Source: an uncultured bacterium (lineage in GTDB: Bacteria; T1Sed10-126; CAZEBV01). Taken from it: a DNA stretch of 44,996 bases. A program made the position numbers and the translations under genes. The notes under the pieces are model-generated. The model worked only from the letters and a program-made list of their open reading frames with translations. It did no database searches and was not told where the DNA came from. Location of the stretch: positions 1 to 44,996 of the forward strand of contig CAZEBV010000001.1 in NCBI GenBank assembly GCA_964510695.1, given 5' to 3'. Position 1 is the stretch's first letter; every line of letters starts with the position of its first letter. Below, in pieces: positions 1-44,996 of this stretch.

Positions 1-268
1 GGGAGACCGTCAGCAGGACGTCCTTTTTGTAGAGGACCTCGACGTCCTCCTCGAAGTCCGGGTCCTCGGATTCCACCGCGGTGATCTCGAAGGGGTACCG
101 TCTCGGGGACTCCCACGGGGCCACCCCGTTCCCCCGGACCGACCAGGACAGGTAGGGCGTCTCCGGCCGGTCGCCCTCCACGTTCTTCTTGATGCACCGG
201 GTGAGCCGGTCCTCGAAGCTGAGGATCCCCGGCACGAATATCGTCACCAGCGGGGCCCGGTCCGTCAC
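1..268 (-). CDS. N-terminal part of a neck/tail-completion protein cut by the window edge (continues at 44996..44713)
   Basis: GTG at 268 overlaps the stop of 265..648 (GTGA). Frame is open to nt 1 (VTDRAPLVTIFVPGILSFEDRLTRCIKKNVEG...). Lies between the head-tail joining genes and the sheath once the ends are joined. Confidence 0.6.
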   Translation of the reverse strand, partial: MTDRAPLVTIFVPGILSFEDRLTRCIKKNVEGDRPETPYLSWSVRGNGVAPWESPRRYPFEITAVESEDPDFEEDVEVLYKKDVLLTVS

Positions 269-648
269 GGCCGATCCCTCAGTTCCACGCGCCAGACGTC
301 CGCGGCGTCGTCCACGTCCCCCACCTCGTAGTCCCCCTCACCCGGGACGCTCACGATGTCCCCGCCGGTGATGTCCCATTCGGGGCGACGCTGAAGCCTC
401 CGGACGGACCGCTGGGGCACGTGCATCATGCGATCGGCCTGCACCTCGACGTTCGCGTCCTCCCGGCTCTGGTAGCGTTTGTCCGGTTCGTACAGCTCCG
501 CCTCGAGCTCGAAGGGGTCCGGGTCCTCCCCCACGAGGGGCTCCCCGGTCTTTTGACTCCAGTCCCGGTCGGCCGTGTGGTCAATCGTGACGGTCCTGGT
601 GTCCCCCAGCTTGGCGGAGCCGGCGGACATCCGGCTGCCGGGTTTCAT
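265..648 (-). CDS. Head-tail joining/adaptor protein (call is positional)
   Basis: 127-aa ORF with a TGATG overlap to the upstream gene and a GTGA overlap to the downstream gene. Follows the HK97 gp10-like gene. Confidence 0.5.
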   Translation of the reverse strand: MKPGSRMSAGSAKLGDTRTVTIDHTADRDWSQKTGEPLVGEDPDPFELEAELYEPDKRYQSREDANVEVQADRMMHVPQRSVRRLQRRPEWDITGGDIVSVPGEGDYEVGDVDDAADVWRVELRDRP

Positions 649-1181
649 CAGACCGGCTCCCAGGCGATGGCCTGAAACAGGCGGCCCTCGTCCCGAAGGG
701 GGACGGCATTACCGCCCCCACCATCCCCACCGCGCCGGAGCATCAGGGTCATGTCGGAGAGCGGCGGGCCGTTCTCGCCCATCTGTTGCTGCATGAAGGA
801 CTTGACCGTCTCCCCCACCAGGGGCATCAGGCTTTCGGGGGCGGCGTTCCCCTCGGCGATCTGGACCATCCGGGACCGGACGAGCGTGCGGATCTCGGCC
901 TCGTTGTCGTCCAAAGCCGGCCGGATGAACTGGCGCTCCGGGATGTGGATGTGGGTCTTCTCCTCCCGGAACCAGATCCCATGCACGAAGGCAAAGTAGT
1001 TGCGCATCTTCTCGGTGATGCGGATGGTGGCCCCGAACTCGTGAACGGACGCCTTGATCTGCTGGGTGCTTCCTCCTTTACCCATGACACCCACACGAAT
1101 CCCCGCCCCCTGGACCTCGCCGATCGCATCGACCAGCTGGGGCACGTTGTTCTCGTGGTCGGTGACCTTGACGGTGGCCAT
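648..1181 (-). CDS. HK97 gp10-like head-tail connector / tail-completion protein
   Basis: IHIPERQFIRPAL motif is typical of the HK97 gp10 family. Coupled 1-nt overlaps at both ends. Confidence 0.7.
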   Translation of the reverse strand: MATVKVTDHENNVPQLVDAIGEVQGAGIRVGVMGKGGSTQQIKASVHEFGATIRITEKMRNYFAFVHGIWFREEKTHIHIPERQFIRPALDDNEAEIRTLVRSRMVQIAEGNAAPESLMPLVGETVKSFMQQQMGENGPPLSDMTLMLRRGGDGGGGNAVPLRDEGRLFQAIAWEPV

Positions 1182-1576
1182 CAGCTAAAGACCCGGGGGG
1201 AGGTACGCCGGTCCTGCTGGACGGTGATGCCGACCTGACTCAAAAAGCCCTTGAGTGTCCGGCCGTGGCTCGTGTTCTCCAGCCACTTCTCGAGGTTCTG
1301 TTTCGGGATGGTCCAGGTGGCCGATCGGCCCTCCCGGCTGGCGCTCTGGGTTTCGGGCTCGGCGTCGTGCATCAGGTGGCAGGTGAGCAGTCGCTCCACG
1401 CGCTCCAGGACGTCGGCGGGGTCCGGATCCTTGCCGGAGCGGGCGCTTTCGATCGCATCCTTCCAGCGCAGGTCGACCTCGAGGGCGGCGTCGTCGAGGA
1501 TCTGCTGGATCTGGGGGTCGGTCAGGCCGGTCTCGCCGTAGGTGTTCAGGATGGCCTCTACGGAGGTCCGGGCCAT
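1181..1576 (-). CDS. Head-tail connector (gp6-like head-completion) protein
   Basis: 131 aa, helical N-terminal region. Placed between the capsid genes and the gp10-like gene; coupled overlaps at both ends. Confidence 0.5.
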   Translation of the reverse strand: MARTSVEAILNTYGETGLTDPQIQQILDDAALEVDLRWKDAIESARSGKDPDPADVLERVERLLTCHLMHDAEPETQSASREGRSATWTIPKQNLEKWLENTSHGRTLKGFLSQVGITVQQDRRTSPRVFS

Positions 1577-2267: not shown

Positions 2268-3281
2268 TCAGACCCCGTCCATCTGGACGATGGCGTCGGC
2301 GTCGAAGATCCGAAGCCCGGCCGTGGTGATCCGGCTCCTGAGCAGGACGTTGTCGTTGCGCAGGGTCTGCGGATCCAGCATCCGGGCGATGTCGGAGGTG
2401 AGGACGTCGAAGTTGGGCTCCTCGGCGTCCTCGTTCTCGTCGGGGTTCGCGTCCGGGGCGAGCGCCAGGAGCGTGTGCTGCCCGGCGCCGTCCGTGTCCT
2501 CGAGCTGGCTGACGGGGACGACCTGCCCCACGTTCTCCTTGTTTTCGATGATCTCCAGGAGCGTGCGGGTGTCGCCCTGGGTCGGCGCGATCCGGGTGCG
2601 GTTCAGCAGCGCGTACCGGTCGCGGGGAATGCCCAGGTCCCAGGGGGGCATCATGCCGACCTGGTTCTCCAGCTGCTCGACGGCCCGGTCGACGTCCGCG
2701 AGGATGTCCTCGGGGTTGCCGTTGGCCAGCTTCGTGGGCCAGTCGTTGGCGTTCAGGGGGGCGACGGTCTGCGCGTTGCCGGTGGTGGCCAGCCCGGGGA
2801 TCCCGTAGGCGGTCGACCCGAGGAAGATCAGCCGGTCCTCGAACCGGAAGTGCGCCCGGCGCATGACCCGCGTGCCGCGAGTGCGAATCGGCCGGTCGTT
2901 CTCCCGGGCGGCGGCGACCTCCTGGGCCTTCAGCTCGTAGCCCAGCACGCGGTACAGCTGGGCGTTCGTCCGGGGTTCGATGTCCTCCTCCACCTGCATG
3001 AACTCGGTGGCCTGCTCGGCGGTGAACTCGTCGTTCTCCTCGTTCTCCTCGTCGCGGTAGACGCGGTCCACGACCTCGTCGTGCTGGACTTCCTTGGCCC
3101 ACCAGGGCGCGTCGCTGGTGACCGGCACGAGCAGCCGTCCCGTGAGCTCCTCCTCGCGGAAGCTGACCAGCCGGTTCTCCAGGTAACGCAGGTCCTCCTC
3201 GCGCAGCCCGGACGCCGAAGCGTCGGACGTGGCCACGCTGGTGTCACTGGAGCTCAGGTCGATAAGGTTGCGCACGGTCAT
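2268..3281 (-). CDS. Major capsid protein (HK97-fold type)
   Basis: 337 aa. Sits after the scaffold and decoration genes and before the connector genes. Sequence character resembles phage/encapsulin-type capsid proteins. Confidence 0.8.
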   Translation of the reverse strand: MTVRNLIDLSSSDTSVATSDASASGLREEDLRYLENRLVSFREEELTGRLLVPVTSDAPWWAKEVQHDEVVDRVYRDEENEENDEFTAEQATEFMQVEEDIEPRTNAQLYRVLGYELKAQEVAAARENDRPIRTRGTRVMRRAHFRFEDRLIFLGSTAYGIPGLATTGNAQTVAPLNANDWPTKLANGNPEDILADVDRAVEQLENQVGMMPPWDLGIPRDRYALLNRTRIAPTQGDTRTLLEIIENKENVGQVVPVSQLEDTDGAGQHTLLALAPDANPDENEDAEEPNFDVLTSDIARMLDPQTLRNDNVLLRSRITTAGLRIFDADAIVQMDGV

Positions 3282-3318
3282 GGACCTCCCATGTCCAGGG
3301 TCTACCGCGTCTCAGTTA

Positions 3319-3777
3319 TCAGGTCTCCGTGGGCCGCAGCCGGATGGCCCCGTTGTCCTGGGCGCCCCCGGGCGGCACCGCGATCTCGGCGTTCGTCAGA
3401 GCCACCACGGGCGTCGTGGCGGTCGACTCGGGCCGGAACGTGGAGGTGGCGGGGTCGATGACCACGCCCTCACCCTTGGCCCCGTCCTCCTCGAAGGGCA
3501 CGACGGGTTGGCCGAGGCTCCCGGGCCGAAGCACGGGCACGGGGTCGTTCTCGGCGTAGGTGTGAGGCGGCCCGGCGTCCTGGTCGGCCCGCATGCTGTC
3601 CAGGGCGATGCCCACGAACTCCTCACCGGTGTCGTCGAAGACCTCCACCTCGTCCTCGTCGGCGGTGGCTCGCTGGAGGGGATCACCGGCGCTGATTGCT
3701 TCGGCGGCGCGGAACGTGTCGACCTCGGTCTCCGCGCTCTTGTGCAGGTTTCCGAGCATGTGATCCGGAAAAGGCAT
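3319..3777 (-). CDS. Capsid accessory/decoration protein (DUF2190-like)
   Basis: 152 aa, directly upstream of the major capsid gene. Gly/Pro-rich beta-type sequence as in DUF2190 head proteins. Confidence 0.5.
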   Translation of the reverse strand: MPFPDHMLGNLHKSAETEVDTFRAAEAISAGDPLQRATADEDEVEVFDDTGEEFVGIALDSMRADQDAGPPHTYAENDPVPVLRPGSLGQPVVPFEEDGAKGEGVVIDPATSTFRPESTATTPVVALTNAEIAVPPGGAQDNGAIRLRPTET

Positions 3778-3815
3778 CGCTCAGGCCTCCCTGAAAGTGC
3801 GGGCGATCGTCAGCG

Positions 3816-5636
3816 TCACGATCCGACGTGCGCCCGGGGGTTATCCAGCTTCTGTCGCTTCTCCTCGGTGTCCTTTTGCAGGTCCTCGACGTCCTGGACC
3901 TCCTGGACCTCCTCGTCCTCGGTGCCTTCGTCGGGGTCTTCGACTTCCTCACCGTCTTCGTCGGGGGTGTCCCCGGAGGGCACGCCGTCCAGCACCGAAT
4001 CCAGCCGCGCCCGGAGGTAGGTGTCCTCGTCCATGTCCTCGGGGAGCCCGTCGGTGGCTGCCTCGACGTCGACGTCCGCGAGGATCTGAAGGGCGTCCTT
4101 CATGACCTCCTGCAGGGACTTCACGTTCCCCTGCTCGTCGGTGAAGGAGTAGTCCTCCTGCTCCTCCTGGATGGCCATGATGAGCTGGATCTTGAAGTTT
4201 TCGTCCTCCTCGGAGCCGCCTTCCTCGGGGCCCTCCGGCCCGGGCTGTTCCTGGAGCTGTTCCAGCTGATCCTCGATCCCGTCGAGGCGGCCCTGGAGGT
4301 CGCTTCGCTCCTCGCGGAGGTCCTCCAGTTCGGCGTCGGCGCACCGCAGAAGATAGACCGCTCGCTCGATCTCGTCGGAGCACTCCTCGCAGTCGACGTC
4401 GCTGAGGTCGACCTCGTGTTCTTGCCCGTCGATCGTCACGGTCACTTTCACGGCGGCAGCGCCTCCTCGGTCGGTGGTCTCGCTTTTTTCGCCTGGTTCG
4501 CCCCCATTGTCACGCCCTGCAAAATCGGGCGCAATCATATCCGCGATCCTATCCAGGGTGTCCGTGGACTCCCCCTCCTGGTCGGGCAGCATTTCCTCCA
4601 GGCGGGACCGGGACACGCCCAAAGTCTGGGCGATGGCGCTTCGAACCGCGTCCGACGGGATGATGGCCCCGGCCACCTGGGCCCGGACTTCCTCGACGGT
4701 GCGGTTTGACAGCCCCGCGATCGACTCGAGGACCTCCTCGCGGTCCTTTTCCATGTTCTGGATGCGGCTGGTGACGAACTCCCCGAAGGACTGGTCGAGC
4801 ACGGCCTGAAGCTCATCGAGGTCCTCGGGGAGGGCGTCCTCGTTGTTCTCTGAGAAGTGCTCGACCTCCCGCAGCCGCTGGACGGCTTCCTCGCGGGTCT
4901 CGAAGCACCCGAACTCCCGGTCCCCATCCTCGGACACCACGCACCACTCGTCGTCGCGCTCGACGATGCGGTCGTTGACGTTCAGGGCGTCCGTGGCGTC
5001 GATGCCCACCCCCACCACCCGGGCGTCCTGGGTCTCCTCGATCGAGCAGGTGGGCCCGCATCGCCCCTGGTCGACGACGGCCGAGTGCCAGAAACGAAGG
5101 TTGCGCTGGGTGGCCTCGTAGTCCTGACCGCGGAAGGTGCCCGGTTCGTCGTGGATGTCCACCAGGCGGGCCGTCGAAATCTGGGCCCGGCCCTCCTCGA
5201 TCGACTCGGCGAGGCCGGCGTCCGTGATGACCATGGCCGTCGCCAGAGCCGCCACCTCGCCGTAGATGTCGTCCTCCACGGTGACGAGGTAGACCTGCTC
5301 CCCGTTCATGCCCTCCGCGTACTGGTCCACCTGGTCGGCCTGCTCGGCGGTGATGGGGGGGTGTCCGTCCGTGACGGCGGCGCCGGCCAGCGTCGTTCGC
5401 GCGACGTCGCTGGTGAGCTCCTCCCGGGGGACGTGCTCCCACTGCAGGCGGGTCTCCCCGGGCTGCATGTCCTCGGGCGGGTCCACCAGGGCGTCGATGC
5501 CGCGGTTGTAGGGCATCGGCCCCTCTCGAATCTGCACCACCCGCTCGACGACCAGCTCGCCGTCCTCGCGGCGTACGTCCAGCGTCGCGCTTGGCATCCA
5601 GTCGATTCGCACCTGGTCAGACTGCAACGGCACCAC
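3816..5636 (-). CDS. Prohead protease/scaffold fusion (DUF2213-like N-domain plus acidic coiled-coil C-domain)
   Basis: 606 aa. The N-terminal ~200 aa resemble DUF2213 head-maturation proteins. The C-terminal half is acidic coiled coil. Lies between the MuF-like and capsid genes. The exact start (GTG 5636 or TTG 5627) is uncertain. Confidence 0.6.
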   Translation of the reverse strand: MVPLQSDQVRIDWMPSATLDVRREDGELVVERVVQIREGPMPYNRGIDALVDPPEDMQPGETRLQWEHVPREELTSDVARTTLAGAAVTDGHPPITAEQADQVDQYAEGMNGEQVYLVTVEDDIYGEVAALATAMVITDAGLAESIEEGRAQISTARLVDIHDEPGTFRGQDYEATQRNLRFWHSAVVDQGRCGPTCSIEETQDARVVGVGIDATDALNVNDRIVERDDEWCVVSEDGDREFGCFETREEAVQRLREVEHFSENNEDALPEDLDELQAVLDQSFGEFVTSRIQNMEKDREEVLESIAGLSNRTVEEVRAQVAGAIIPSDAVRSAIAQTLGVSRSRLEEMLPDQEGESTDTLDRIADMIAPDFAGRDNGGEPGEKSETTDRGGAAAVKVTVTIDGQEHEVDLSDVDCEECSDEIERAVYLLRCADAELEDLREERSDLQGRLDGIEDQLEQLQEQPGPEGPEEGGSEEDENFKIQLIMAIQEEQEDYSFTDEQGNVKSLQEVMKDALQILADVDVEAATDGLPEDMDEDTYLRARLDSVLDGVPSGDTPDEDGEEVEDPDEGTEDEEVQEVQDVEDLQKDTEEKRQKLDNPRAHVGS

Positions 5637-6417
5637 CTCCTCGAAATTCGGCCTGCGCGTCCTCGGCCACCACGTTCGCCCCGCATCGACACTGAATGTC
5701 CCGCCCGGGGTAGCCGGACTCGGACATCGAGGACGGGGCCCCTTCCTGCCAGGTGAATATCTGGCCGTTCGCCCGGCGGTGCCCGTCCCGCGTCCGAGAG
5801 TCGCCCACGGCGTTCCACATAAACTTCCGAAGGCCCGCGTCCCGGTGGCGACGCTCGGTAAGCTGCCCGGAGACCTTCCCGACCTGGTCGCGGGCGATGC
5901 GTTCGGCGTTGAACCGGGCCTTCGCCCCGCCCCGGGGGATCACCTTCTCCAGCTGCTCCCGGGACCACCCTTCATTGATGGCCCGCTTCGTCAGCTGCTC
6001 GATGCGATCGTAGTGCCGCTCGGGCAGCGTCCGGATCAGCTCCACGTTCTCGTCGACCTGACGCGCCAGGAACCGCTCCATCTCCCGGGAGCGCCGGAAG
6101 GGCTGGACGCCGGCCACGGCTTCAAGCTCCCGCTCGAAACTGGCGTTGACCGTCTCGATGACCGGCCGCAGGGACTCCTCCGCGATGTCCTCCCACGCGA
6201 TCGACGTGGCAAACCCGTTCAGCTCGGCCCGAAGGTCCTCGAGGACCGTTCGCATTACGGGGTCGCGCACCTGGTCCTGGGCCTCCTCGGGCGGGATGAT
6301 CGACTCGAGGACGGACACGATCCGGTCCGCGTGGTCCTGGACGATCTCCTCCTGCTTGGCGGTCGTCTTCCACAGCGCCCGGCGGTAGGTGTCGAAACTG
6401 GACTGCGGGAAGATCAC
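5617..6417 (-). CDS. Minor head protein, Mu F / SPP1 gp7 family
   Basis: DSRTRDGHRRANGQIF ... PGRDIQCRC motif. GTGA overlap with the portal stop. Confidence 0.8.
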   Translation of the reverse strand: MIFPQSSFDTYRRALWKTTAKQEEIVQDHADRIVSVLESIIPPEEAQDQVRDPVMRTVLEDLRAELNGFATSIAWEDIAEESLRPVIETVNASFERELEAVAGVQPFRRSREMERFLARQVDENVELIRTLPERHYDRIEQLTKRAINEGWSREQLEKVIPRGGAKARFNAERIARDQVGKVSGQLTERRHRDAGLRKFMWNAVGDSRTRDGHRRANGQIFTWQEGAPSSMSESGYPGRDIQCRCGANVVAEDAQAEFRGGGAVAV

Positions 6418-7955
6418 GCCGGCACACTATCCTCGAGGCCTTCGTCCTCGGTGCCGTGTTCGTACTCCCCGATCGACCGCTCGGCCGCCGAGGCCGCGCT
6501 GCCCTCGTCGGGCAGGTCGATGTCGTCCAGGGTCTCCCCCCGGTTGATGCGCTGAAGCATCTCGGTGGCCTCGGGGATGCCGATGGCCCCGCGGGAGGCC
6601 ATCTCGACGACCCGCTGGGTCTGGATGCGCTGGGTCTCGGCCTCCAGCTTGGCCACCTGGGCCTTGCGCTTCTCGTCGGGCTCGAAAATCGGGTTCCACT
6701 CGATCGCATACTCCACCGCCGAGGGCGGGATGACCGGCCCGCCGGTCGAGTCGGTCGGGATGATCTCCCCGTAGGTCCGAAGCGCCACGTCGATCATGAA
6801 GCGAAGCGCGGGGGACAGATACCGGTCCCGGTAGCTTCCGATGCGGGAAAAATAGACCTGCGTGTCCTTCTCGGCCCCGCTGACTTCGCCCTGCTGCTGG
6901 CCGAACAACACGGACTTGGGCGTCTGGGTCGCGGCGGCCAGCATCTCTTTGAGGAATTCGAGATAGGCCGCCATCCCACCGGTGGCCTGACCGGACCCGG
7001 CGAACTCGAGCTCCTCGTCGTTCTTGTCGATCATGGCCAGGCTGAGGGCGTTCATGTGCTCCTGGAGCATGTTCTGGGCGACCTCGAGCTGCCGGCGGGA
7101 GTCCATCGAGGACAGGTCGGTCTTCAGGATCTTCAAAACCGACTGGTAGACGGCCTGCCCGGCGGCCCACTCGGCGTTCATAAAGGCCTTGAGAGTGGTG
7201 GTCATCCGGCGGTAGACCGACAGGCCCCGACCGTCCCGATCGGCGCTGGCGGACTTGGACTCCCGGGGGCGCACGAAGTGGAAGCGGGAGGGGTGGACCT
7301 TCACCCGCTTGTAGGTGTCCTCCCGGGTCCGATACTGCACCTTGATCCAGTCGAACCCCCCGTAGTCGGCGGTGAAGGGGTTGGAATTGATCTCCCACTC
7401 GTGCAGGTCATCCCCGCCGACCACGTTGAAGGTGTGCAGGGCCGTCGGGCGCTCCGACAGCGGGTCCTTCCAGCGCTGGTCGCCGGCCTCCTCGGTCACG
7501 GGCCACACGAAGCCCACGCCCTCATGGCGCTCGGTCTCCACCAGCTTTTCGAGGGTCTCGAAAACGGGGTTGCGCTCGTCCTCGAGCCAGTCGTTGATCC
7601 AGCCCTCGATCTGCGCCGCGTTCTCCTCGGAGATACGGTCGTTCTCGGCGACGCTGACCGTGGCGCCGTTGCGGGTGGCGTACTCGGCGTGCTGGTCGAT
7701 GATGCGGTCGGTGATCCAGGAGGTGTCGTGGATGGCGTCGCGTTCCCGCTCGGAGAGGTCCTCCACCCGGGATCGCACGAAGGTCTGCCCGGAGAGCGGG
7801 TCTTTGTCGGGGTCGCCCTTGGCGGACATGCCCAGCGACCCCAGAAGCTCGTCCTGGACGGGCGCCTCGTCGGGGTTGTCCTGGGTGGTGAGGCCGCGGG
7901 CTTTCGGTACGGAGAGGCTGGAGCCGCCGCCGACGTCGCGGGTCTCGAAGCGCAT
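6414..7955 (-). CDS. Portal protein
   Basis: 513 aa between TerL and the MuF-like gene. Start set at ATG 7955 (MRFETRD), directly preceded by the CTTGGGGGAGTAGGC leader. The longer 549-aa ORF in the track has an Arg/Pro/Ser-rich, implausible N-terminus. Confidence 0.8.
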   Translation of the reverse strand: MRFETRDVGGGSSLSVPKARGLTTQDNPDEAPVQDELLGSLGMSAKGDPDKDPLSGQTFVRSRVEDLSERERDAIHDTSWITDRIIDQHAEYATRNGATVSVAENDRISEENAAQIEGWINDWLEDERNPVFETLEKLVETERHEGVGFVWPVTEEAGDQRWKDPLSERPTALHTFNVVGGDDLHEWEINSNPFTADYGGFDWIKVQYRTREDTYKRVKVHPSRFHFVRPRESKSASADRDGRGLSVYRRMTTTLKAFMNAEWAAGQAVYQSVLKILKTDLSSMDSRRQLEVAQNMLQEHMNALSLAMIDKNDEELEFAGSGQATGGMAAYLEFLKEMLAAATQTPKSVLFGQQQGEVSGAEKDTQVYFSRIGSYRDRYLSPALRFMIDVALRTYGEIIPTDSTGGPVIPPSAVEYAIEWNPIFEPDEKRKAQVAKLEAETQRIQTQRVVEMASRGAIGIPEATEMLQRINRGETLDDIDLPDEGSAASAAERSIGEYEHGTEDEGLEDSVPA

Positions 7956-8102
7956 GCCTACTCCCCCAAGTCCGGAGGGTCCGGTGGTCGATCTCACCCC
8001 CGAGGGTGGCGGAAAGGAAGGGCGGGCGCAATCATAGGAGGCGCTCTCGTCAAACTGGCGCACGGCCGGCGGGGTGCGGGGCCTGCGGTCGGGCTGAGCG
8101 GA

Positions 8103-9551
8103 TCAGTCCCCGAATCGGAGGTCCGACACGTGCGACCCTTCCCCGGATCCGAACATCTCGATCAGCTTTTTGACGGCGTAGACGTGGGCGTCCAGCCGAT
8201 CGGGGGACCAGTCCGAGCCCTGGGTCCACTTGATGAGCTGCTCCTCGAGCTCCTCCAGGACGCCGACGTGGTGCAGCCGTTCGTGACGGTTGTAGAGCAC
8301 GTCCACGTCCCCCGCCCGCAGCAGCTTCCCGCGTTTCGCGTTCACGTCGTCAAAAGCCACGTTCGGGTCAATCGAGAGGATGGTCGATGCCACCATGTCC
8401 CCGCCGAAGTTTGTCTCCCCGACGATCCAGTCGGCCTCCAGGTCGTGATATAGCTCCACCGCCGCCGACCCCCACACGGAGGGCTTGCCCTTCAGGGAGT
8501 AGTCCTCGGGGGTGTAAAATTCGCCGTCGAAGCCGAAGGCGTCCGCCACGATGCCGGCCTCGGCCCCCTCCTCGGATCCAGGCGGATCCACGCCCACCAC
8601 CACGCCTCGGTAGGCGGGGGTCTCTGAGGTCTTCACTCGCAGCTCGTCGATTTGCTCCTGGGTGGTGATGGCGTTCTCGCCGGCGTCCTTCGGCGGGTCC
8701 TGCTGGTACTTCGACAGCCAGACGCGCCGGGGGATGTCCTGTCGGGTCTCGACCAGCTCCTCGAGGGGCATCAGGGTCGGGTTCAGCGCCTCCCCCGGAT
8801 CCCGCGGGTCGTGGACGTTCTGGCGAGCGTTCTCCTCGGTCTGGATGGCCGGGAAGTTGAGGACCTCCCACTTCTCGCCCTCCTCCTCCAGGAGCCAGCC
8901 CGCCAGGTCGTTCACGTCCCACCGCTGCATGAGGAGGATCACCGTCGCCCCCTTCTTGCGGCGGTCCCACAGTGTCCCGTTCCACCAGCGCCGGCGGCGT
9001 TCCCGTTTGACCCGGCTCATGGCGTCCTGCTCGTTCTTGATCGGGTCGTCGACAATGATGACGTCCCCGTGGAAGCCGGTGATGCCGCCCTTCATGCCGG
9101 TCGAAAGCATCCCGCCCCCCTCGACGGTGCGAAACTCGGACACGCCGGCGGCGTCGGGGTTCAGCTGGACGTCGATGTCGGGGTTGTCCCTCAGCTCGTC
9201 GCGCACCTTGCGGCCGTAGTGGTGGGCCAGGTCGTCCGAGTACGAGGTCCCGATGATCTCCCAGTCCGGCCAGGTGTCCAAAATCCAGCACGGCGTGCGG
9301 TGAAAGATCAGCTCGCTTTTGCCGTGGACGGGGGGCATGTTCAGCATGAGCCGGCGACCGCCCTCGAGGATCGCGTCCTGGACGATCCGGGCGATGCGCT
9401 TCAAATAGGCAAAGTCCCCGTCGGCCCGCCAGACGCCCCCGGAGGTTCGCTCGGCGTGGTTCGATAGGTCGTCCGGGCCGAACTGGGAGGGGTCGGTGGG
9501 TTCGACGCGGGAGCGAAACAGGCTCGCCCCGCGCTCTTTCAGATCATCCAT
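8103..9551 (-). CDS. terL: Terminase large subunit
   Basis: Walker A-like MPPVHGKSE, Walker B VIIVDDP, and a C-terminal nuclease-type VVGVDPPGS segment. Sits upstream of the portal gene. Confidence 0.9.
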   Translation of the reverse strand: MDDLKERGASLFRSRVEPTDPSQFGPDDLSNHAERTSGGVWRADGDFAYLKRIARIVQDAILEGGRRLMLNMPPVHGKSELIFHRTPCWILDTWPDWEIIGTSYSDDLAHHYGRKVRDELRDNPDIDVQLNPDAAGVSEFRTVEGGGMLSTGMKGGITGFHGDVIIVDDPIKNEQDAMSRVKRERRRRWWNGTLWDRRKKGATVILLMQRWDVNDLAGWLLEEEGEKWEVLNFPAIQTEENARQNVHDPRDPGEALNPTLMPLEELVETRQDIPRRVWLSKYQQDPPKDAGENAITTQEQIDELRVKTSETPAYRGVVVGVDPPGSEEGAEAGIVADAFGFDGEFYTPEDYSLKGKPSVWGSAAVELYHDLEADWIVGETNFGGDMVASTILSIDPNVAFDDVNAKRGKLLRAGDVDVLYNRHERLHHVGVLEELEEQLIKWTQGSDWSPDRLDAHVYAVKKLIEMFGSGEGSHVSDLRFGD

Positions 9552-10263
9552 CGAAGATCGTCTCGACCTCGTTGGTCAGCTCGGACAGGACGGCCCGGCG
9601 CTTCTTGTCGTCGTCGATGTGTTTCTCGAGGGCGTTCTTGACGGTCAGCCCGAGCCGGTCCACGATGCCCAAAAACTGATCGCGCTGAAGGAACTGCGCC
9701 AGCATCTCGGCTCGCCGGCGCTCCTTGTCCACCAGCCGGCCACGCAGGTCGATCAGATCCTCCAGCTGGGACCAGGTGGCGCGGTGACTGCGCAAGGCCT
9801 GGGCGCCCTCCATGATCTTGCGGACGCCTTCCCGCTTCAGCTCGGGGTCCTCGGCGTCCTGGCCGGCCTCGAACTTCTGGACCCCCTCCTCGAGGGTCTC
9901 GATCGAGGCGGCCACGCCCCCCTCGCCCAGCTGCTCCAAAAGCTCGGACATCCGGGCCTGGGTGAGCCCGATCTCATCGCGCAGGGACATATACTCCTCG
10001 TCCTCGAGGGCGGCCTCGAAGCGTTCGCGCAGGTCGCTGGGGAGGACCTTCGAGTAGCGGCCGTGCTTATGGTTCGGGTGGGCCAGCCCCTTCGCCGCGT
10101 TGCCGCCGTGGTGCTTGCAGCGCCCATCGACGCGCTGCTTGCAGTAACCGGGGCCCGCCCAGGGGCCGGGCGGTTGCTTGGGGAGGTCGGATCGGCCCTT
10201 CTTGCGTCCGTTGCACCGGGTGCCCTTGGTGTCGTCCTCGCCGACGACGGGCTCCTCGCTCAT
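9544..10263 (-). CDS. Terminase small subunit (putative)
   Basis: Overlaps terL by 8 nt. N-terminal Cys/His cluster and an HPNHKHGRYS-type motif seen in some small terminases, followed by coiled coil. Confidence 0.6.
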   Translation of the reverse strand: MSEEPVVGEDDTKGTRCNGRKKGRSDLPKQPPGPWAGPGYCKQRVDGRCKHHGGNAAKGLAHPNHKHGRYSKVLPSDLRERFEAALEDEEYMSLRDEIGLTQARMSELLEQLGEGGVAASIETLEEGVQKFEAGQDAEDPELKREGVRKIMEGAQALRSHRATWSQLEDLIDLRGRLVDKERRRAEMLAQFLQRDQFLGIVDRLGLTVKNALEKHIDDDKKRRAVLSELTNEVETIFDG

Positions 10264-10302
10264 GGGCTTACCGGCGGTTCATGGGCTACTCGAGGGATCG
10301 GA

Positions 10303-10500
10303 TCAGACGTCCAGCCGGCGTTCGCGGTCCTCGAGGGCACCCAGGGCGGTACCGTCGGCAGGGTTTGTGCGTCGGAGGTTGGCGACCAAACTATCCCGGA
10401 GTTTCTCGAGCCCCGGTTCGACCTCTCGGCCGTTCCCCATGCTGTCGAGCATCTCCTGCATGTCTCCCGCGGGATCAGCGCCTTCCTCGTCCCAGCTCAT
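10303..10500 (-). CDS. Hypothetical small acidic protein
   Basis: 65 aa. ATGA overlap with the upstream ORF. Confidence 0.5.
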   Translation of the reverse strand: MSWDEEGADPAGDMQEMLDSMGNGREVEPGLEKLRDSLVANLRRTNPADGTALGALEDRERRLDV

Positions 10501-10733
10501 GCCCGGTCACCCTCCTGGAGCCACTCAGGGGGTTCTTGTGCGTAGCATCCGACGGGATCGTGGTTTTTGCAGTCGGGGTTGGCGCAGAACCAGGTGTAGT
10601 CGTAGCCGGCGCCCCGTTGTTCATCGGGGTATAGTCGGGGGGTTTCGACCGCTTCGGTGTGGCCGGTGACGACCGCGGGATAGCCGCAGTTATCACACCA
10701 GCCTTTCAGCCAGGCGTCATCGCTCGTGGCCAC
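10497..10733 (-). CDS. Small Cys-rich (zinc-finger-like) protein
   Basis: CDNCG ... CANPDCKNHDPVGC. GTG start preceded by CTTGGGGAGTAGG and by the palindrome at 10756. Confidence 0.6.
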   Translation of the reverse strand: MATSDDAWLKGWCDNCGYPAVVTGHTEAVETPRLYPDEQRGAGYDYTWFCANPDCKNHDPVGCYAQEPPEWLQEGDRA

Positions 10734-10755
10734 GGCAGCCTACTCCCCAAGCAGG

Positions 10756-10769
10756 TTTACGCGCATAAA
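10756..10769. repeat. Palindrome copy 2, TTTACGCGCATAAA (one mismatch)
   Basis: Abuts the stop codon at 10770. Sits upstream of the small-gene/terminase block. Confidence 0.7.
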
Positions 10770-11150
10770 TCAGACCAAGGTCGCCCCGGGTCTGTTCAGG
10801 TGAGGCGGGGCGGCGTCATAGAAATGGAGCCAGTGGTTCTTGAGCTTGAATCGACGCATCACCAAAAAGAAGTCGGCGGGCGGACACATCACGAACCGCA
10901 AAAAATACCACGGCGGCATCAGCGCAAGCAGGTTCCCGGCGGCGTGATCGTCCATCTCGCACTCCATGGTGACCGTGACTTCCTGATCGACCGCGAAGTG
11001 ACCCTCGGGGATGGGCTCGAAGTCCGGGTCGGCCTCGGGCTCAAATCGTTCCCGATCGGCCTCGAGGACAAACGAATCCACCTCGGCGACGTTATCCATT
11101 CCGTCTCGGCCACCCATCCCGATCGGATCGAAACGGGGCCGCCCGCTCAA
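10770..11150 (-). CDS. Hypothetical protein
   Basis: 126-aa ORF. Start is uncertain (internal ATGs at 11117 and 11099). Stop abuts the palindrome at 10756. Confidence 0.45.
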   Translation of the reverse strand: MSGRPRFDPIGMGGRDGMDNVAEVDSFVLEADRERFEPEADPDFEPIPEGHFAVDQEVTVTMECEMDDHAAGNLLALMPPWYFLRFVMCPPADFFLVMRRFKLKNHWLHFYDAAPPHLNRPGATLV

Positions 11151-11262: not shown

Positions 11263-11473
11263 CGGGCATCTCCTTCCGGGTCGAGGGTTAGGATGGCGCA
11301 ACGACAGTTTACGTGACGCGGGGGCGTTAGGGGACCGAAAAGACGTCCTGACCGGTGGGCAGGCGCGGTGATGGTCAGGCTTCGGAACGTCTTGCAATCG
11401 ACCAGGCCTCCACGGTACTGCTGGGCGTAGATTTGCCCCCGGATGGAGAGCTTCCGGGTCAAAAACGGCGATC

Positions 11474-27618: not shown

Positions 27619-27718
27619 CAGGTGCCCCTCCAGGACGGAAGGGCGCTTGAAGGGAAAACGTCAGCGGGGTAGGATTATCCTCCTGATTTCACGAGAAGGA
27701 ACGATCAACACACGGCCG

Positions 27719-27768
27719 TCTCGTTGCCAACGAGAAGGTCGGGGGTTCAAATCCCCTCACCCGCTCCA
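27719..27768 (+). other. attP core: 3' 50 nt of a tRNA-Gly(GCC), from the anticodon stem to CCA
   Basis: TCTCG-TTGCCAA-CGAGA anticodon arm (GCC), AGGTC variable loop, GGGGG-TTCAAAT-CCCCT T-arm, CACCCGC-T-CCA acceptor end. No D-arm or 5' acceptor strand upstream. Integrase lies 450 bp away. Confidence 0.75.
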
Positions 27769-28166: not shown

Positions 28167-28216
28167 CTTTTACGCGCTGTTTTGTGGGGGTTTCCGGGTG
28201 GGACTCGGTGATCGCC

Positions 28217-29338
28217 ATGAAGGGAAGCATCCAGCAGATCGAGCGTAAGACCAAGACCGTCCACCGTGCCCGCATCGACGTCCCGTCGCCGGACGAGGAC
28301 CGAAAGCAGATCAGCAAGACCTTCGACGAGGAGGGGGATGCGACGACGTGGCTGATCCAGAAGAACCACGAGATCAGCACGGGGACGCTGGTGACGCCCT
28401 CCGAGATGTCGATGAAGCAGTACCTCCAGAAGTGGATGGAGGATGAGAGGGACGCGATTCGCCCCAAGACCCACCAGAAGCGCCAGTGGGCCATGAACCA
28501 CATCCTGCCCGCCCTGGGGCACGTGGAGGTCGGGGATCTTACGCCCTACCACCTACAGACGCTTTACCAGGACAGGCTGGAGGACCTCGCGCCCAGCTCG
28601 GTGAAGAACCTGCACGAGATCCTGCACAACGCCCTGCGAAACGCCTGCCGGCTGGAGATCATCGCGGACAACCCGGCGAAGAACGTGTCCCCGCCCGCGA
28701 AGCCGGACCCGGATTTCACGGTCCTCGACGGCGAGCAGATCGAACGCTACCTGTCAGCCGCCCGGGGCCGGCGGTACTACCCCGTGCTTCTGACGCTCGT
28801 GATGACCGGCCTCCGGCGCGGCGAGGCGCTGGGGCTACGGTGGGAGGACGTCTCGCTGGATGAGGCGAGCCTGAGCGTGCGTAAGACGCTGGGGCGCACC
28901 GACGAGGGGCTGGGGTTGGGCGATGTGAAGACCGCCTCCAGCCGGCGCTCTGTGGCGCTCATGGAGGCCAACGTAAAGGCGCTTCGGGACTGGAAACAGC
29001 GCCAGCTTCAGGAGCGTTTGAACCACCCGGACCTGGCCGGGCGCTCCGAGCTGGTCTATACGACCTCGGAGGGTAATCCCGTCCACCCTCGAAGCCTGCT
29101 GAGGTCCCACAACAAGGTCGTCGATCAGGCCGACGTCCCCGACGTCACGATCCACGACCTGCGCCACACGCACGCCACGCAGATGCTCCGGAATGGGACC
29201 CACCCGAAGGTCGTCCAGGAGCGGCTGGGACACTCCCGGATCGAGGTCACGATGGACACCTACAGCCACGTTTTGCCCGGGATGCAGGAGGACGCGGTGG
29301 AGGCGCTTGAACAGTCGATGGGGGCGGATACGGTATGA
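28217..29338 (+). CDS. int: Tyrosine integrase
   Basis: Catalytic-region motifs LLTLVMTGLRRGE, HDLRHTHAT, LGHSRIEVTMDTYSH. Start set at ATG 28217 (MKGSIQQIERK). Confidence 0.9.
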   Translation: MKGSIQQIERKTKTVHRARIDVPSPDEDRKQISKTFDEEGDATTWLIQKNHEISTGTLVTPSEMSMKQYLQKWMEDERDAIRPKTHQKRQWAMNHILPALGHVEVGDLTPYHLQTLYQDRLEDLAPSSVKNLHEILHNALRNACRLEIIADNPAKNVSPPAKPDPDFTVLDGEQIERYLSAARGRRYYPVLLTLVMTGLRRGEALGLRWEDVSLDEASLSVRKTLGRTDEGLGLGDVKTASSRRSVALMEANVKALRDWKQRQLQERLNHPDLAGRSELVYTTSEGNPVHPRSLLRSHNKVVDQADVPDVTIHDLRHTHATQMLRNGTHPKVVQERLGHSRIEVTMDTYSHVLPGMQEDAVEALEQSMGADTV

Positions 29339-40290: not shown

Positions 40291-41853
40291 TCAGAACGCC
40301 CCCGCCAGTGAACTGCCCCAGCGATCCTCGAGCTCATCGGCCAGGTCCTCGGCCAGGCTGCGGCTTTCCTCGGGGGTCCGCTGCCCGTTGGAGCGGTCCT
40401 CGACGGTGATGTTGAAGGTCGGGGATCCGCCCAGACCAACATCGCCCGAGGTCTCCTGCAGGATCTCCCGGGTTTCCGTGGATCGGCTGACCGACTCCCG
40501 CTGCTGAATGCTGCGGATCGTCTTGGAGGCCGCGGTGGACGTGCCATCGGAGGCGCCGTCGGTGGCGAACGAGAGCATCCCCTGGAACACGCTCTCGCCC
40601 AGGCCGGTCGAGAAAAACGACGCCACGGTCTCAAGGGGCAAGAAATCCAGGGACAAAAGGCGATCAAGCGTGGTGAGCCAGCCGCCCGTCCACTCATCGA
40701 GGTCCTGAAATAGACCCCCCCAGTCGACCAGTAGCGGCTTCCCGGTGATGAGCCAGCTGATGAGGTCGGCCGCCGCGGGGATGAGAAGGAAAAGGGCCGC
40801 CGCCCATCCCAGCGAGACCCCACTGACGGCCCCCAGCGCGGTGGTCACGGAGCCGATGGCGCTGGGCAAATAGGCGATGATGGAAACAACGGCCGCTGAG
40901 ATGCCGGCGAGGGACGCCATGTTGCCCGCAGCGGTCACGGTCTCGGGGTTTTGCTCGCTGAGCGACGAAAGCCAGGAGCGCCCGGCCTCCGTGGATCGCT
41001 TGTAGGCTTCCGAGACGTCCCGTCCGAGCAGGCCCGCGAACCGCTGAAAGGCGTTGTTGGCCGCCTGGGTCCGTCCGGTCACGGTCCCCTGGATCTCAGC
41101 GGCGGCGCGGCGCCGGTTGTTCGCCTCGATCCGGATGGCGTTGGCCAGGGCCTGCCGGGCGATCGACTCGTCCATCTCGTCGTTAAAATCCTGGAGGGTA
41201 TTGACGTTCAGCCCCAGCGCCTGAGCCTGCTCGAGGAAAACCTCCTTGCTGATCGGCCCGGCGTTGATGATTTCCTCAAAGCCGCCCACGGCCTCTTTCA
41301 GCGGGTCTCCGAACCGGTCGAAGACCGTCATCAGGTCGTCTTCCATCGTGGTGGCGATCGTGGCGAGGGCGGGCGTGACCTGCTCGATCGTCTGGACCGG
41401 GATCCCCCGGGAAAGAAGCTCCGCCTGCCCTCGCAGGGCCTGCTCGGCCGAGACGTAGTCGTCGGTGATCTGGCTGACCCGTTCCGCCTGGGTCACCAGC
41501 TCATCGCCGAGGCGCCCCCCGAGGGCGCTCACCCGCGTTTCGGCCTCCTCGAGCTGGGCCCGCTGGGTCACCGCGAAGGTCTGTGCCGCCGCAACGCCGG
41601 CGAATAACCCGCCAGAAACCGTCCCGATGGTCTGCAGCTGGCCCTCGAGGTCGCCAAGCGAGGCGGCGGTGTCCTGAAAGGCCCGCTCACCGCGTTCGCC
41701 GGCCTGCTCCATCTCCCCGCCGGCTTCTTCGGCCTCGTCTCCCATCTCCTGCGCGGATCCGGCGGTTCGTTCGATTTCCTCGTCCAGGTCCCGGACCTGC
41801 TTTTCGCCGTCGACGTCGAAGAAGATGGCGACCGTCGTGTCTCTCAGCGCCAT
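40291..41853 (-). CDS. Tail tape measure protein
   Basis: 520 aa, Ala/Gly/Leu-rich helical sequence with hydrophobic segments. Sits after the chaperone pair. Confidence 0.8.
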   Translation of the reverse strand: MALRDTTVAIFFDVDGEKQVRDLDEEIERTAGSAQEMGDEAEEAGGEMEQAGERGERAFQDTAASLGDLEGQLQTIGTVSGGLFAGVAAAQTFAVTQRAQLEEAETRVSALGGRLGDELVTQAERVSQITDDYVSAEQALRGQAELLSRGIPVQTIEQVTPALATIATTMEDDLMTVFDRFGDPLKEAVGGFEEIINAGPISKEVFLEQAQALGLNVNTLQDFNDEMDESIARQALANAIRIEANNRRRAAAEIQGTVTGRTQAANNAFQRFAGLLGRDVSEAYKRSTEAGRSWLSSLSEQNPETVTAAGNMASLAGISAAVVSIIAYLPSAIGSVTTALGAVSGVSLGWAAALFLLIPAAADLISWLITGKPLLVDWGGLFQDLDEWTGGWLTTLDRLLSLDFLPLETVASFFSTGLGESVFQGMLSFATDGASDGTSTAASKTIRSIQQRESVSRSTETREILQETSGDVGLGGSPTFNITVEDRSNGQRTPEESRSLAEDLADELEDRWGSSLAGAF

Positions 41854-41860
41854 GGCTGGC

Positions 41861-43220: not shown

Positions 43221-44312
43221 TCAGGCTCGAAGGACGACGGTGTAGTCGACCTGGTCCACGGCGCCGGCGAGCCGGGTGTTGATCTCGACGTCCGGAAGCA
43301 CCCGGTTGGTGCGATCGCTCTCCGAGATGTCCGCGATGTCGGGGATGTTGATGGAGTAGTCGGGAATGCCCTCCGCGTCCCGGGCCACCAGATGCTCCTC
43401 GACGCCCTCCTGGAGAACATCCTCGATGGTCTGGCGGACCTGCTCGGCGCCCTGGGCGGTGTAGGGGATCTTGTCCTGGGCCAGGGCGACGGAGAAAAAC
43501 GACTCGGTGAACCGGGCGTTCATCCACAGCTTGATGATGGCGATGTCGGCGTAGCCGCCCGTGGGCTCGAAGCCCTGGGACGTCTGGGGCTCGCCCAGCT
43601 TCGACAGATAGACGGCCCCGTTTGCCCCCTCGATCGTGCTGATTTCCGTGGCCGTGTAGTCGCTGGCCCCCACGCCCTCCAGCTGCTGGAACTTGAAGTT
43701 GAGGGAGCCGGGAAAGTTGCTGGCCAGACGCCCGGCCATCGCGGCGTCCACCGGCCGGTCGATCGAGTCCAGGCTAGCCCCCGCGTTCTCGAAGGCCAGA
43801 AAATAAAGCTGGTCGAACTGGAGGTTGTTGTTCAGGTCGGACTCGATGCTGGTGGCGGTCTCGCCGGCGTTCGAGGTCGCCAGGAAGAAACGGTCGTTGC
43901 TGTCGCACCATCCGGCCACGTCGGCCCGGTCGCCCGCCACGCCTTCGGGCGTGGACCCGGTGCCCTCCCGGCTGGTCATGCACACGTAGAAGAAATCCTC
44001 GCCGGCGATGTTGTCCAGGGCCGTCGAAAGTTCCCCGTTGGAGGGCGCCCGCCCGCTGACCTTCAGCACGGCCACCCGGGAGGCCCCGTTCGAGAACATG
44101 TACTCCGCCCAGCGGACGATGCGGGGGTTGTTCGTGCGATCGTAGGCCGCCGTGAGGGCGGTCACGCTGTTGTAGACGTTGTATTCGTCGGTGGGACCGT
44201 TGCCGGTGCCGCCCTGACCCACGATCAGGGGGATGCGGAAGTTCGCCTGCCCGATCGGGATCTGGTTCTGCTCGAACTCGATGACGACATCGTCGGAGGC
44301 CTGGGAGCTCAC
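43221..44312 (-). CDS. Contractile tail sheath protein
   Basis: 363 aa. Size, position upstream of the tube, and sequence character (PLIVGQGG.., FFYVCMTS.., ADIAIIKLWM) fit small sheath proteins. Confidence 0.75.
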   Translation of the reverse strand: MSSQASDDVVIEFEQNQIPIGQANFRIPLIVGQGGTGNGPTDEYNVYNSVTALTAAYDRTNNPRIVRWAEYMFSNGASRVAVLKVSGRAPSNGELSTALDNIAGEDFFYVCMTSREGTGSTPEGVAGDRADVAGWCDSNDRFFLATSNAGETATSIESDLNNNLQFDQLYFLAFENAGASLDSIDRPVDAAMAGRLASNFPGSLNFKFQQLEGVGASDYTATEISTIEGANGAVYLSKLGEPQTSQGFEPTGGYADIAIIKLWMNARFTESFFSVALAQDKIPYTAQGAEQVRQTIEDVLQEGVEEHLVARDAEGIPDYSINIPDIADISESDRTNRVLPDVEINTRLAGAVDQVDYTVVLRA

Positions 44313-44317
44313 TCAGA

Positions 44318-44716
44318 TCAACCCTCCTCGAGGGCTTCGCGCCGCCGTTGGACGGCGTTCAGAACGGAGTCCCGATCGCTTTTCTGCTCGATCGTGTCCA
44401 GGGCGTCGTCGTGCTCCCCGTTTTCGATCTGTTTCACCGCTGTCTGCCACGGTAACGAGTCCACGGGGTTGGCGCTATCATATCCGCCCTCATCCTCCTC
44501 GGAGCGGGCCCCTCGGCGCTCCTCGAGGGCGTCCTCGAACCAGTCCGTCGGCTCAGAGACCTCAAGGACCTCGGCCCGATCGTCCAGGATCGCGTCCAGC
44601 ACCCTTGGATCCCGGGCCCGCCGAAGCGTCAGCGTGCGGGTCTGGCCGGCGAGGATGACCTCGCCCGTGGCCATCTGGAGGTCCTCGTCGTCGGTCACGC
44701 TCACTTTGAGCATCAT
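44318..44716 (-). CDS. Hypothetical neck/tail protein
   Basis: 132 aa. ATGA overlap with the upstream gene. Directly upstream of the sheath. Confidence 0.5.
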   Translation of the reverse strand: MMLKVSVTDDEDLQMATGEVILAGQTRTLTLRRARDPRVLDAILDDRAEVLEVSEPTDWFEDALEERRGARSEEDEGGYDSANPVDSLPWQTAVKQIENGEHDDALDTIEQKSDRDSVLNAVQRRREALEEG

Positions 44717-44996
44717 GGCACCGTCTCCCCTGCGGCGATGTCGGACGAATCGGCGAATTCAAGCTGCTCGATCGTCGCCAACGTGTGCGTGTCCCGGAGG
44801 TCCGCCACCAGCTGCACGTCCAAACCCTCAGAGACCTCCCGTTCGCCCTCCAGGTCCTGCCCCGATCGGCCGGTGTCGCTGAAGTCCCGGTAGGTGATGG
44901 CAAGGCCCTGATCGCAGGCCTCCTCGTCGAACCGATACAGCCAGTAGCGCCGCACGTTCCGGGCGATCTCCCCCAGCGGCTGGGTGCCCAGGCCCT
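44713..44996 (-). CDS. C-terminal part of the edge-split neck/tail-completion protein (see 1..268)
   Basis: The frame stays open upstream of the GTG listed at 44955, through to the window end (..GLGTQPLGEIARNVRRYW..). Confidence 0.6.
   Translation of the reverse strand, partial: GLGTQPLGEIARNVRRYWLYRFDEEACDQGLAITYRDFSDTGRSGQDLEGEREVSEGLDVQLVADLRDTHTLATIEQLEFADSSDIAAGETVP

Follow-up and report, generated by a model that had tools for sequence, protein, structure and literature searches.

Introduction

The neck-tail region of Pseudomonas phage E217 consists of the collar protein gp28 (132 aa), the gateway or tail terminator gp29 (183 aa), the sheath gp31 and the tube gp32 (PMC10329688). E217 and its relative Pa193 (Pbunavirus; PDB 8FVH and 9B42) are virulent phages of 65 kb. 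Terminators are also described from other tails, such as lambda gpU, T4 gp15, T5 p142, the Mu terminator and the pyocin R2 collar, and their genes lie immediately before the sheath or tube genes. At the level of assemblies, the closest described cases are complete phages with a circular map recovered from metagenomes, in which one contig carries all tailed temperate modules, its ends are neighbours in the map and linearisation cuts through a gene. Such genomes are usually identified from a direct terminal repeat or an overlap of terminal k-mers.

The window analysed here, i.e. the whole stretch of 44,996 nucleotides, is the entire longest contig (C1) of a metagenome-assembled genome (MAG) with 251 contigs. 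Like the circular-map phages, it combines all these modules on one contig whose ends appear adjacent; unlike them, it has no terminal overlap, an independent assembly ends at the same positions, and about 9 nt appear to be missing between the ends. For these reasons its closure is deduced from a split gene and from synteny rather than from the assembly graph. The order and sizes of its 127-, 183- and 132-aa products, its sheath of the DUF3383/E217_gp31_N type and its tube match those of E217 and Pa193, whereas the window phage is only 45 kb, appears temperate (integrase, candidate attP) and has a sheath of 363 aa. From the model of a homologue, the 183-aa product may belong to the fold class of the terminators listed above (Foldseek), with a structural-alignment identity to gpU-type terminators of only 9–17%, and the window protein is longer than gpU (about 130 aa).

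Results

The contig ends carry two halves of one tail terminator gene

The gene lies on the minus strand and runs from GTG 268 to nt 1 and then from nt 44996 to a TGA at 44713–44715. Its start codon (CAC at 266–268 on the forward strand) overlaps the TGA (265–267) of the gene at 265–648. The minus-strand ORF 2..268 comprises 89 codons and leaves the window at its edge, while at the other end the frame 44713..44994 is open at the edge and shares its frame with the ORF 44713..44955. Joining the ends gives 268 + 284 = 552 nt, or 183 codons plus TGA, without an internal stop; a CAG (Q) codon spans the junction, and the translation over the join reads ...KKDVLLTVS-Q-GLGTQPLGEIARNVRRYW.... The GTGA overlap at the start codon, the open frame entering at nt 44996, the 184 codons including the stop and the junction text had all been put forward in the original prediction, and each was reproduced. 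Its statement that there is no terminal duplication also held, as a search for exact terminal repeats of 8–400 nt at the contig ends found none. Neither direct repeats of at least 7 nt within 60 nt of both ends nor 21-mers or longer words common to the window ends and other MAG contigs were found, and the junction pattern (20 nt + N{0,30} + 20 nt) gave 0 matches in IMG/VR and the JGI metagenomes. The terminal k-mer overlap that usually marks a circular de Bruijn contig is absent here.

Both halves bear a coding signature in the joined frame, with GC1/2/3 of 0.63/0.42/0.96 in the 5' half and 0.70/0.45/0.86 in the 3' half. The open join is nevertheless weak evidence by itself, because all six frames are stop-free over the join (26–206 codons) in this 66% GC DNA and the minus strand holds about 95% of the coding bases; a join on the same strand, in phase and without a stop would occur by chance in roughly 1/3 of cases. 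The case for the join thus rests on homologues.

When the C-terminal half (93 aa) was used as the lone query in a phmmer search of 1.84 billion representatives, three proteins of 187–188 aa (P0001–P0003) were found, matched at residues 97–186. For the N-terminal half, the alignment to P0001 (187 aa) covered residues 4–90, with 40% identity and an E-value of 4e-23. The joined protein matched the profile of six homologues (36–43% identical to it) end to end, at positions 2–186, with 190 bits and an E-value of 1.9e-60. It had been set beforehand as a check that homologues should hold both halves in one protein, and proteins of 187–190 aa do match both halves end to end. PF23961 (Phage_tail_terminator_9) was reached above its Pfam gathering cut-off of 27 bits in four of five homologues (P0001, P0003, P0006 and P0007, at 27.7–37.8 bits). 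The joined 183-aa protein gave no match to this family even at E ≤ 10 and reached no Pfam or PHROG threshold; its putative membership would follow by transitivity only, via the profile of its homologues.

The homologue P0001, rather than the window protein, was modelled with AF2. The model is weak overall (pLDDT 58), and its top Foldseek matches (TM 0.3–0.46) are almost all tail terminators. They include the necks of P74-26, Sf14 and Bas63, lambda gpU, the gateway proteins of Pa193 (9b42_G) and E217 (8fvh_M), the pyocin R2 collar and the Mu terminator. This possible likeness to E217 and Pa193 would lie in the fold, whereas the terminator profile matched no chain among the PDB sequences. The sub-family has been found in metagenome assemblies only, and the window adds a member to it. 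A word-indexed search with the joined protein and a tblastn search of 50,697 phage records returned no match, no full-length copy of this exact gene was present in a collection of 5.8 billion protein clusters, and among the 12 genomes of the MAG's phylum the window itself was the sole match. Searches with the terminator alignments found no related locus in IMG/VR or the GTDB genomes.

On this sequence homology, we assign the contig ends as the two halves of one predicted phage tail or neck terminator gene, the putative counterpart of E217 gp29. Nucleotides 268 to 1 would encode the N-terminal half of the protein and nucleotides 44996 to 44713 its C-terminal half. The product would form a hexameric tube cap that ends tail polymerisation and joins the neck to the sheath. 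It also carries a C-terminal extension like the sheath-binding one of gp29, which may play the same role here, judging from E217 (PMC10329688).

Gene order over the join is shared with related contigs

In all three related contigs examined (L005, L006 and L007), the terminator is a single gene at the equivalent place. Their order is the major capsid protein (MCP), four ORFs of 130–184 aa, the terminator of 187/188 aa, an ORF of 112 aa, the sheath and the tube, and they carry the families Pa193_gp24, Phage_cement and Major_capside. Once joined, the window reads MCP, products of 215, 131, 177, 127, 183 and 132 aa, sheath and tube, so that it is collinear with its relatives over the join, with at most about three codons absent (Table 1). 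The join had been predicted to restore the order of connector genes followed by the sheath; this order is the same in the related contigs and matches gp27–gp32 of E217 (PMC10329688). In the light of the E217 order given there, the product of 265..648 may be the counterpart of the collar protein gp28, by position only. A sheath-based search for related loci in IMG/VR returned none.

Table 1. Features of the window that bear on the join, the packaging genes and integration
Feature	Position	Strand	Evidence or remark
Tail-terminator gene, 5' half	1..268	-	GTG start at 268; codons 1–89, with nt 1 as the first base of codon 90
127-aa neck protein upstream of terminator	265..648	-	no family match; relatives have a 130–131-aa ORF in place
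Tail completion / Neck1 protein, 177 aa	648..1181	-	phrog_222, E 2.1e-26
DUF4054-like head-tail connector, 131 aa	1181..1576	-	phrog_302, E 1.9e-5; PF13262, E 1.6e-4, just under cut-off
Major capsid protein, 337 aa	2268..3281	-	phrog_264, E 6e-31
Portal protein	6414..8063	-	phrog_146, E 1.9e-52; PF06381, E 3.4e-45
Terminase large subunit (TerL)	8103..9551	-	phrog_38, E 2e-73
Putative terminase small subunit	9544–10263		
HNH endonuclease	27079–27618		
tRNA-like fragment, anticodon GCC, candidate attP core	27695..27758	+	Rfam tRNA 24.4 bits, E 0.017, below gathering
Tyrosine integrase	28184..29338	+	phrog_1, E 1.2e-72
Tape measure protein	40291..41853	-	phrog_28, E 8.5e-13
Tail tube-position protein, 132 aa	42806..43204	-	phrog_280, E 2.9e-22; directly after sheath gene
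Tail sheath, 363 aa, DUF3383 / E217_gp31_N type	43221..44312	-	phrog_205, E 4e-47; PF11863, E 1e-15
132-aa ORF between terminator and sheath	44318..44716	-	weak phrog_17946; synteny, by position the relatives' 112-aa ORF
Tail-terminator gene, 3' half	44713..44996	-	last two bases of codon 90, codons 91–183, TGA 44713–44715

About nine nucleotides are probably absent at the join

When the two halves were aligned separately to the family profile, the N-terminal half ended at column 91 and the C-terminal half began at column 96, and the join fills one of the four columns between them. Between the TVS motif and the following invariant G, six of six homologues have four residues and the window protein has one. 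HMMER places the resulting 3-residue deletion right after the junction Q, with a posterior of about 0.7–0.8. In the P0001 model, the region of the missing residues is a strand (residues 85–95, local pLDDT 65–82). The in-frame join is real but probably inexact, because three residues conserved in the family are missing precisely at it: the contig probably lacks about 9 nt there, three codons of a conserved beta-strand that would read x-[V/I/A]-[I/V/K] on the minus strand.

The same break was found in an independent assembly. Among the Logan contigs of run SRR9010616, L008 corresponds to window positions 1–1053 and L009 to 43499–44996, both at 100% identity, and both stop exactly at the window ends. 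Since an independent assembly ends on the same bases, the break stems from the read data and not from an arbitrary opening of a closed circle. At internal breaks, adjacent Logan contigs overlap by just 2 and 26 nt. These overlaps are below k-1, with the Logan k taken to be 31, as expected of coverage-limited breaks. The two Logan contigs retrieved for other parts of the MAG, L014 and L015, fall short of the ends of MAG contigs C7 and C3. The most likely cause of the break is a small coverage gap in a data set of roughly 10x, a depth that we estimated from the Logan contig sizes. The Logan and MAG sequences differ at 5929 and 15615–15616, i.e. by 3 mismatches in 13 kb.

Origin of the break

We consider it highly probable that the window holds essentially the whole genome, about 45.0 kb with a circular map, of a temperate phage with a contractile tail, and that the map was opened in the terminator gene by a limit of the data, most likely a coverage gap, with about 9 nt probably absent. 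The assembly would have been left open within the terminator gene where the read data end, and the DNA itself may have been a circle, a concatemer or permuted virion DNA. A gene split at the contig ends is an ordinary property of assemblies. Of the original prediction of a whole circular or circularly permuted phage genome, the essential completeness and the circular map stand, and the exact join probably does not, as the window seems about 9 nt short. Likewise, the ends are adjacent in the map, as the prediction had it, but they are no arbitrary opening of a closed circle. If the join were exact, the closed genome would measure 44,996 bp and the three-residue shortening would be a natural deletion located by chance where the contig was opened. 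The joined frame with its normal coding signature is compatible with this, indels occur in the terminator family at one or more other sites (alignment column 68–69), and a hand alignment can place the gap in the loop that precedes helix 101–123, six residues further downstream, at a cost of about 9–15 BLOSUM62 units by hand count. Against it, all six homologues keep the residues in question, the deletion is set by HMMER at the junction codon, and a natural 3-residue deletion within one residue of the contig end, out of about 185 positions, would be a coincidence of roughly 1–2%. Shared breakpoints between a trimmed closed circle and an independent assembly would not be expected either, and we therefore regard an exact join as possible but unlikely. 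An in-frame join is thus no proof of an exact one, while a split gene with contiguous homologues can establish completeness without a terminal overlap.

Three other explanations of the ends were considered. If the terminator gene held a short stretch of about 9 nt that was polymorphic or carried an indel, and the assemblers emitted only the flanks of the resulting bubble, the ends would lie at the same bases for any k and without overlap, as seen in Logan, and some microdiversity is present in the differences noted above. Such a population variant is nonetheless improbable: those mismatches are few, the other Logan breaks look coverage-limited rather than branch-type, and the segment falls in a conserved strand and not in a variable loop. 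The ends could alternatively be the true physical termini of a linear DNA, e.g. a cos site whose 3' overhang of roughly 9 nt was removed by end-repair; the essential late terminator gene would then be intact only once the injected DNA circularises. In its favour, both assemblies stop at identical bases on either side and neither overlap nor extend, the size of the deficit equals that of a common 3' cos overhang (about 9 nt, as in actinophage and HK97-type ends), and the window encodes an HNH endonuclease. However, cos sites, to our knowledge, adjoin the terminase genes and do not lie inside a late structural gene 9 kb off, whereas the window ends are about 8–10 kb from TerL and the putative small subunit, and the HNH gene, too, lies away from the terminase genes. 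The head module (MuF-like, Phage_portal_3, with a weak Terminase_6N in a relative) is of a kind usually tied to headful packaging, and a related phage in the same run was assembled straight across the homologous site. Identical ends would also arise from a plain coverage gap, provided that each assembler discards k-mers that occur only once. Terminal redundancy and circular permutation are described for the 65-kb Pseudomonas phages, the nearest studied phages in structure (PMC12345254). Physical termini thus seem very improbable. The idea that the window is only part of a larger genome or integrated prophage, with unrelated ends and a frame open by chance, can be practically dismissed. Open frames over any join are common in DNA of 66% GC and there is no terminal overlap, but the ends are halves of one conserved protein that is contiguous in relatives, which effectively refutes this reading; in addition, the window is without host genes, the candidate attP is internal with phage genes on both sides, and a relative's contig is of similar size (41.6 kb).

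Gene content and possible host lineage

The genes found make up a full temperate myovirus set. Integrase, HNH, RecE/RecT, RusA, ParB, TerL, portal, MuF, protease, decoration protein, MCP, neck, sheath, tube, tape measure, baseplate, fibre and holin genes are all present. The closest annotated phage TerL proteins share only about 30% identity with that of the window. Neither host genes nor host flanks were found in the window, and family searches returned nothing host-like, in agreement with the original prediction. A search of the MAG for CRISPR arrays found none. A protelomerase-type or linear-plasmid prophage was also considered and rejected: the join yields only a 6-bp inverted repeat, an integrase and a candidate attP are present, and the subset of window ORFs scanned contained no match to a protelomerase family.

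The candidate attP core is intact within the contig, between the HNH and integrase genes. ARAGORN called no tRNA gene in the window. In the MAG, tRNA-Gly(GCC) was sought and found absent, and no attB-like match was detected, the matches of 22–26 nt being at chance level. The window offers a complete or near-complete temperate myovirus genome binned with a MAG of a very sparsely sampled phylum (12 species genomes in the collection searched). Its GC content (65.9%) equals the MAG mean and the candidate attP resembles tRNA-Gly(GCC), and the phage could be a useful reference in studies of phages and hosts of this lineage.

The split gene at the contig ends

The evidence supports the window as a temperate myovirus genome that is whole save for about 9 nt at most and whose circular map was opened in the tail-terminator gene; opening of a contig inside a gene is an ordinary property of assembly. 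The original prediction, a whole circular or circularly permuted phage genome, is upheld in its wholeness and circular map, while its exact join is probably about 9 nt short. The coordinates on which it was built hold upon recomputation (see table): the minus-strand gene that runs off nt 1 continues in the open frame entering from nt 44996, and the joined halves form 552 nt with no stop, encoding 183 aa, with CAG as the junction codon and the translation ...KKDVLLTVS-Q-GLGTQPLGEIARNVRRYW.... Both halves carry the coding signature of the genome in this frame (GC3 of 0.96 and 0.86, GC2 of 0.42 and 0.45). The predicted lack of a terminal duplication was borne out, as a repeat search of the window ends found none.

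The open join itself carries almost no information, because all six frames are stop-free for 26–206 codons over it in this 66% GC DNA and approximately 95% of the coding bases of the window lie on the minus strand; a match in phase has a one-in-three chance. An independent test was therefore required. An exact join would also form a 6-bp inverted repeat across the junction, which is at chance level at this GC content and absent if 9 nt are missing.

Positions of features and Logan contigs on the window
Feature	Position (nt)	Strand	Remark
N-terminal half, split gene	268..1	-	GTG at 268 overlaps TGA of upstream gene (GTGA); 89-codon frame
C-terminal half, split gene	44996..44713	-	open to TGA 44713-44715
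ORF in the same frame as C-terminal half	44713..44955	-	
Inverted repeat of exact join	44987-44996 + 1-3		CCCAGG-C-CCTGGG
tRNA-like fragment	27695-27758		anticodon GCC; between HNH and integrase genes; candidate attP core
Gene of 647-aa protein	13209-15152	-	
353-aa ORF	19461-20522	-	early region
Shorter ORF	20027-20347		choice of GC3-based gene picker
Logan contig L008	1-1053		
Logan contig L009	43499-44996		
Other Logan contigs	1336-2849; 2848-15934; 15909-19184		
Logan contig L011	24098-27770		
Base differences, Logan contig L010 and MAG contig	5929; 15615-15616		three in 13 kb

The two halves belong to a tail terminator

The joined protein had no match in PHROGs, Pfam, a word-indexed protein search or tblastn of phage records. 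When 1.84 billion representatives were searched exhaustively with phmmer, using the C-terminal half alone (window 44716-44994, minus strand), three proteins of 187–188 aa came back, aligned at their residues 97–186, and the N-terminal halves of these homologues matched window nt 2-268 (minus strand) at 40% identity (E = 4e-23). Three further homologues, of 187–190 aa, came from a search with a profile, and the six-homologue profile aligned with the joined protein over positions 2–186 (190 bits, E = 1.9e-60). Since the homologues of the C-terminal half also match the N-terminal half and the profile aligns end to end, sequence comparison assigns both halves to one protein family, contiguous in every relative, which answers in the negative the question, posed with the original prediction, of whether they belong to different proteins. 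A separate protein of 1531 aa (P0004) aligns at six distinct places with residues 16–53 of the C-terminal half, where the long helix lies (E = 1.5e-5); it is perhaps a repeat or coiled-coil protein unrelated to terminators.

PF23961 (Phage_tail_terminator_9, 'phage neck terminator') was reached by four of five homologues, and the joined protein of the window itself did not reach it. The AlphaFold2 model of P0001, a 187-aa homologue, is weak overall (pLDDT 58); almost all of its Foldseek matches were tail terminators, including those of the P74-26, Sf14, NF5 and Bas63 necks, lambda gpU, the Pa193 and E217 gateways, the pyocin R2 collar and the Mu terminator. The neck of Pseudomonas phage E217 consists of the adaptor gp27, the collar gp28 (132 aa) and the gateway gp29 (183 aa, gpU-like), whose C-terminal arm binds the sheath, and the sheath gp31 and tube gp32 come after (PMC10329688). 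The terminator sub-family to which the window protein belongs is known from metagenome assemblies only.

Three related Logan contigs (L005, L006 and L007) share the order TerL, portal, MuF, a Pa193_gp24-type protein, cement protein, MCP, four ORFs (130–184 aa), a 187/188-aa terminator, a 112-aa ORF, an E217_gp31_N sheath and tube. Read through the join on the minus strand, the window runs TerL, portal, MuF, protease/scaffold, decoration protein, MCP, ORFs of 215, 131, 177 and 127 aa, the 183-aa terminator, a 132-aa ORF, sheath and tube, so the claim that joining restores the order from connector genes to sheath agrees with all three. Judged from the sequences, loss at the join is limited to a few codons at most. 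L005 is part of the 41,582-bp Logan contig SRR9010616_13247; run SRR9010616 also contains a second, distantly related phage, with a 39% identical terminator and the same head-neck-tail order.

Residues probably missing at the join and the origin of the break

Six of six homologues have four residues separating a conserved T-V-S from an invariant G, against a single one in the window (the junction Q). Aligned separately, the N-terminal half ends at column 91 and the C-terminal half begins at column 96, and HMMER places a 3-residue deletion directly after the junction codon (posterior ~0.7–0.8). In the P0001 model the missing residues fall within strand 85–95 (local pLDDT 65–82), before helix 101–123. 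A natural deletion in the terminator would have to coincide exactly with the contig ends, a coincidence put at roughly 1–2%, which favours the reading that about 9 nt are probably absent from the assembly. Nine being divisible by 3, the in-frame join holds with or without them.

Exact-protein look-ups found Logan contigs identical with the window, two of which (L008 and L009, run SRR9010616) end at its exact terminal bases; the break originates in the data. Where adjacent Logan contigs meet at internal breaks, they share 2 and 26 nt, less than k-1 for a Logan k that we take to be 31, as is typical of breaks limited by coverage rather than of graph branches. No sequence spanning the junction was found in IMG/VR or JGI metagenomes. 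At a depth of perhaps 10x, both assemblers would halt where k-mers seen at least twice run out, and a gap of about 9 nt at this one place would be bridged by no read. A short polymorphism left unassembled is compatible with the same facts as such a coverage gap, and is less likely. So are true DNA termini inside the gene, for example with a 9-nt 3' overhang lost in end repair, which would account both for two assemblies ending at identical bases and for the codons that seem to be lost; this is quite improbable, however, as the site lies within a late structural gene, 8–10 kb distant from the genes of the terminase, the head module belongs to the MuF/Phage_portal_3 type, the studied phages nearest in structure are described as circularly permuted and terminally redundant (PMC12345254), and the related phage of L005 was assembled in the same run straight across the homologous site. 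The base differences between L010 and the MAG contig stem either from errors of assembly or from slight microdiversity in the population.

Source and gene content

The window is all of the longest of 251 contigs of a 2.26-Mb MAG (completeness 89.6%), and its GC content of 65.9% equals the MAG mean. Only 12 species genomes represent the phylum, all MAG-like (1.4–3.8 Mb, 110–290 contigs), and the other 11 hold no relatives of the terminator gene. By exact-protein look-ups, proteins of this phage were seen only in this MAG and run SRR9010616; the phage is a singleton tied to a rarely sampled phylum.

Further tail genes encode tape measure, baseplate hub, wedge and J-type proteins and a fibre, and other genes encode a holin, DUF5675, tyrosine integrase, HNH endonuclease, RecE, RecT, RusA, a metallopeptidase, ParB and regulators; as predicted, no host-type gene appeared in the window. 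Phage genes flank the tRNA-like core on both sides, and the contig therefore has the topology of an excised phage, not an integrated prophage. The MAG has the CCC and TCC isoacceptors of tRNA-Gly and lacks GCC, and L011 stops shortly past the 3' end of the core. Together these may reflect an assembly graph that branches between attP and attB/attL/attR forms, in which case free and integrated phage were both in the sample.

At its C-terminus the 353-aa ORF has a domain resembling a transglycosylase/endolysin (phrog_669, E = 5e-9), and the ORF overlaps the shorter one, leaving the gene model uncertain. The 647-aa protein has a weak Beta_helix match only (precomputed Pfam); its gene and that of a 404-aa structural-type protein lie between the parB and terminase genes, outside the tail operon.
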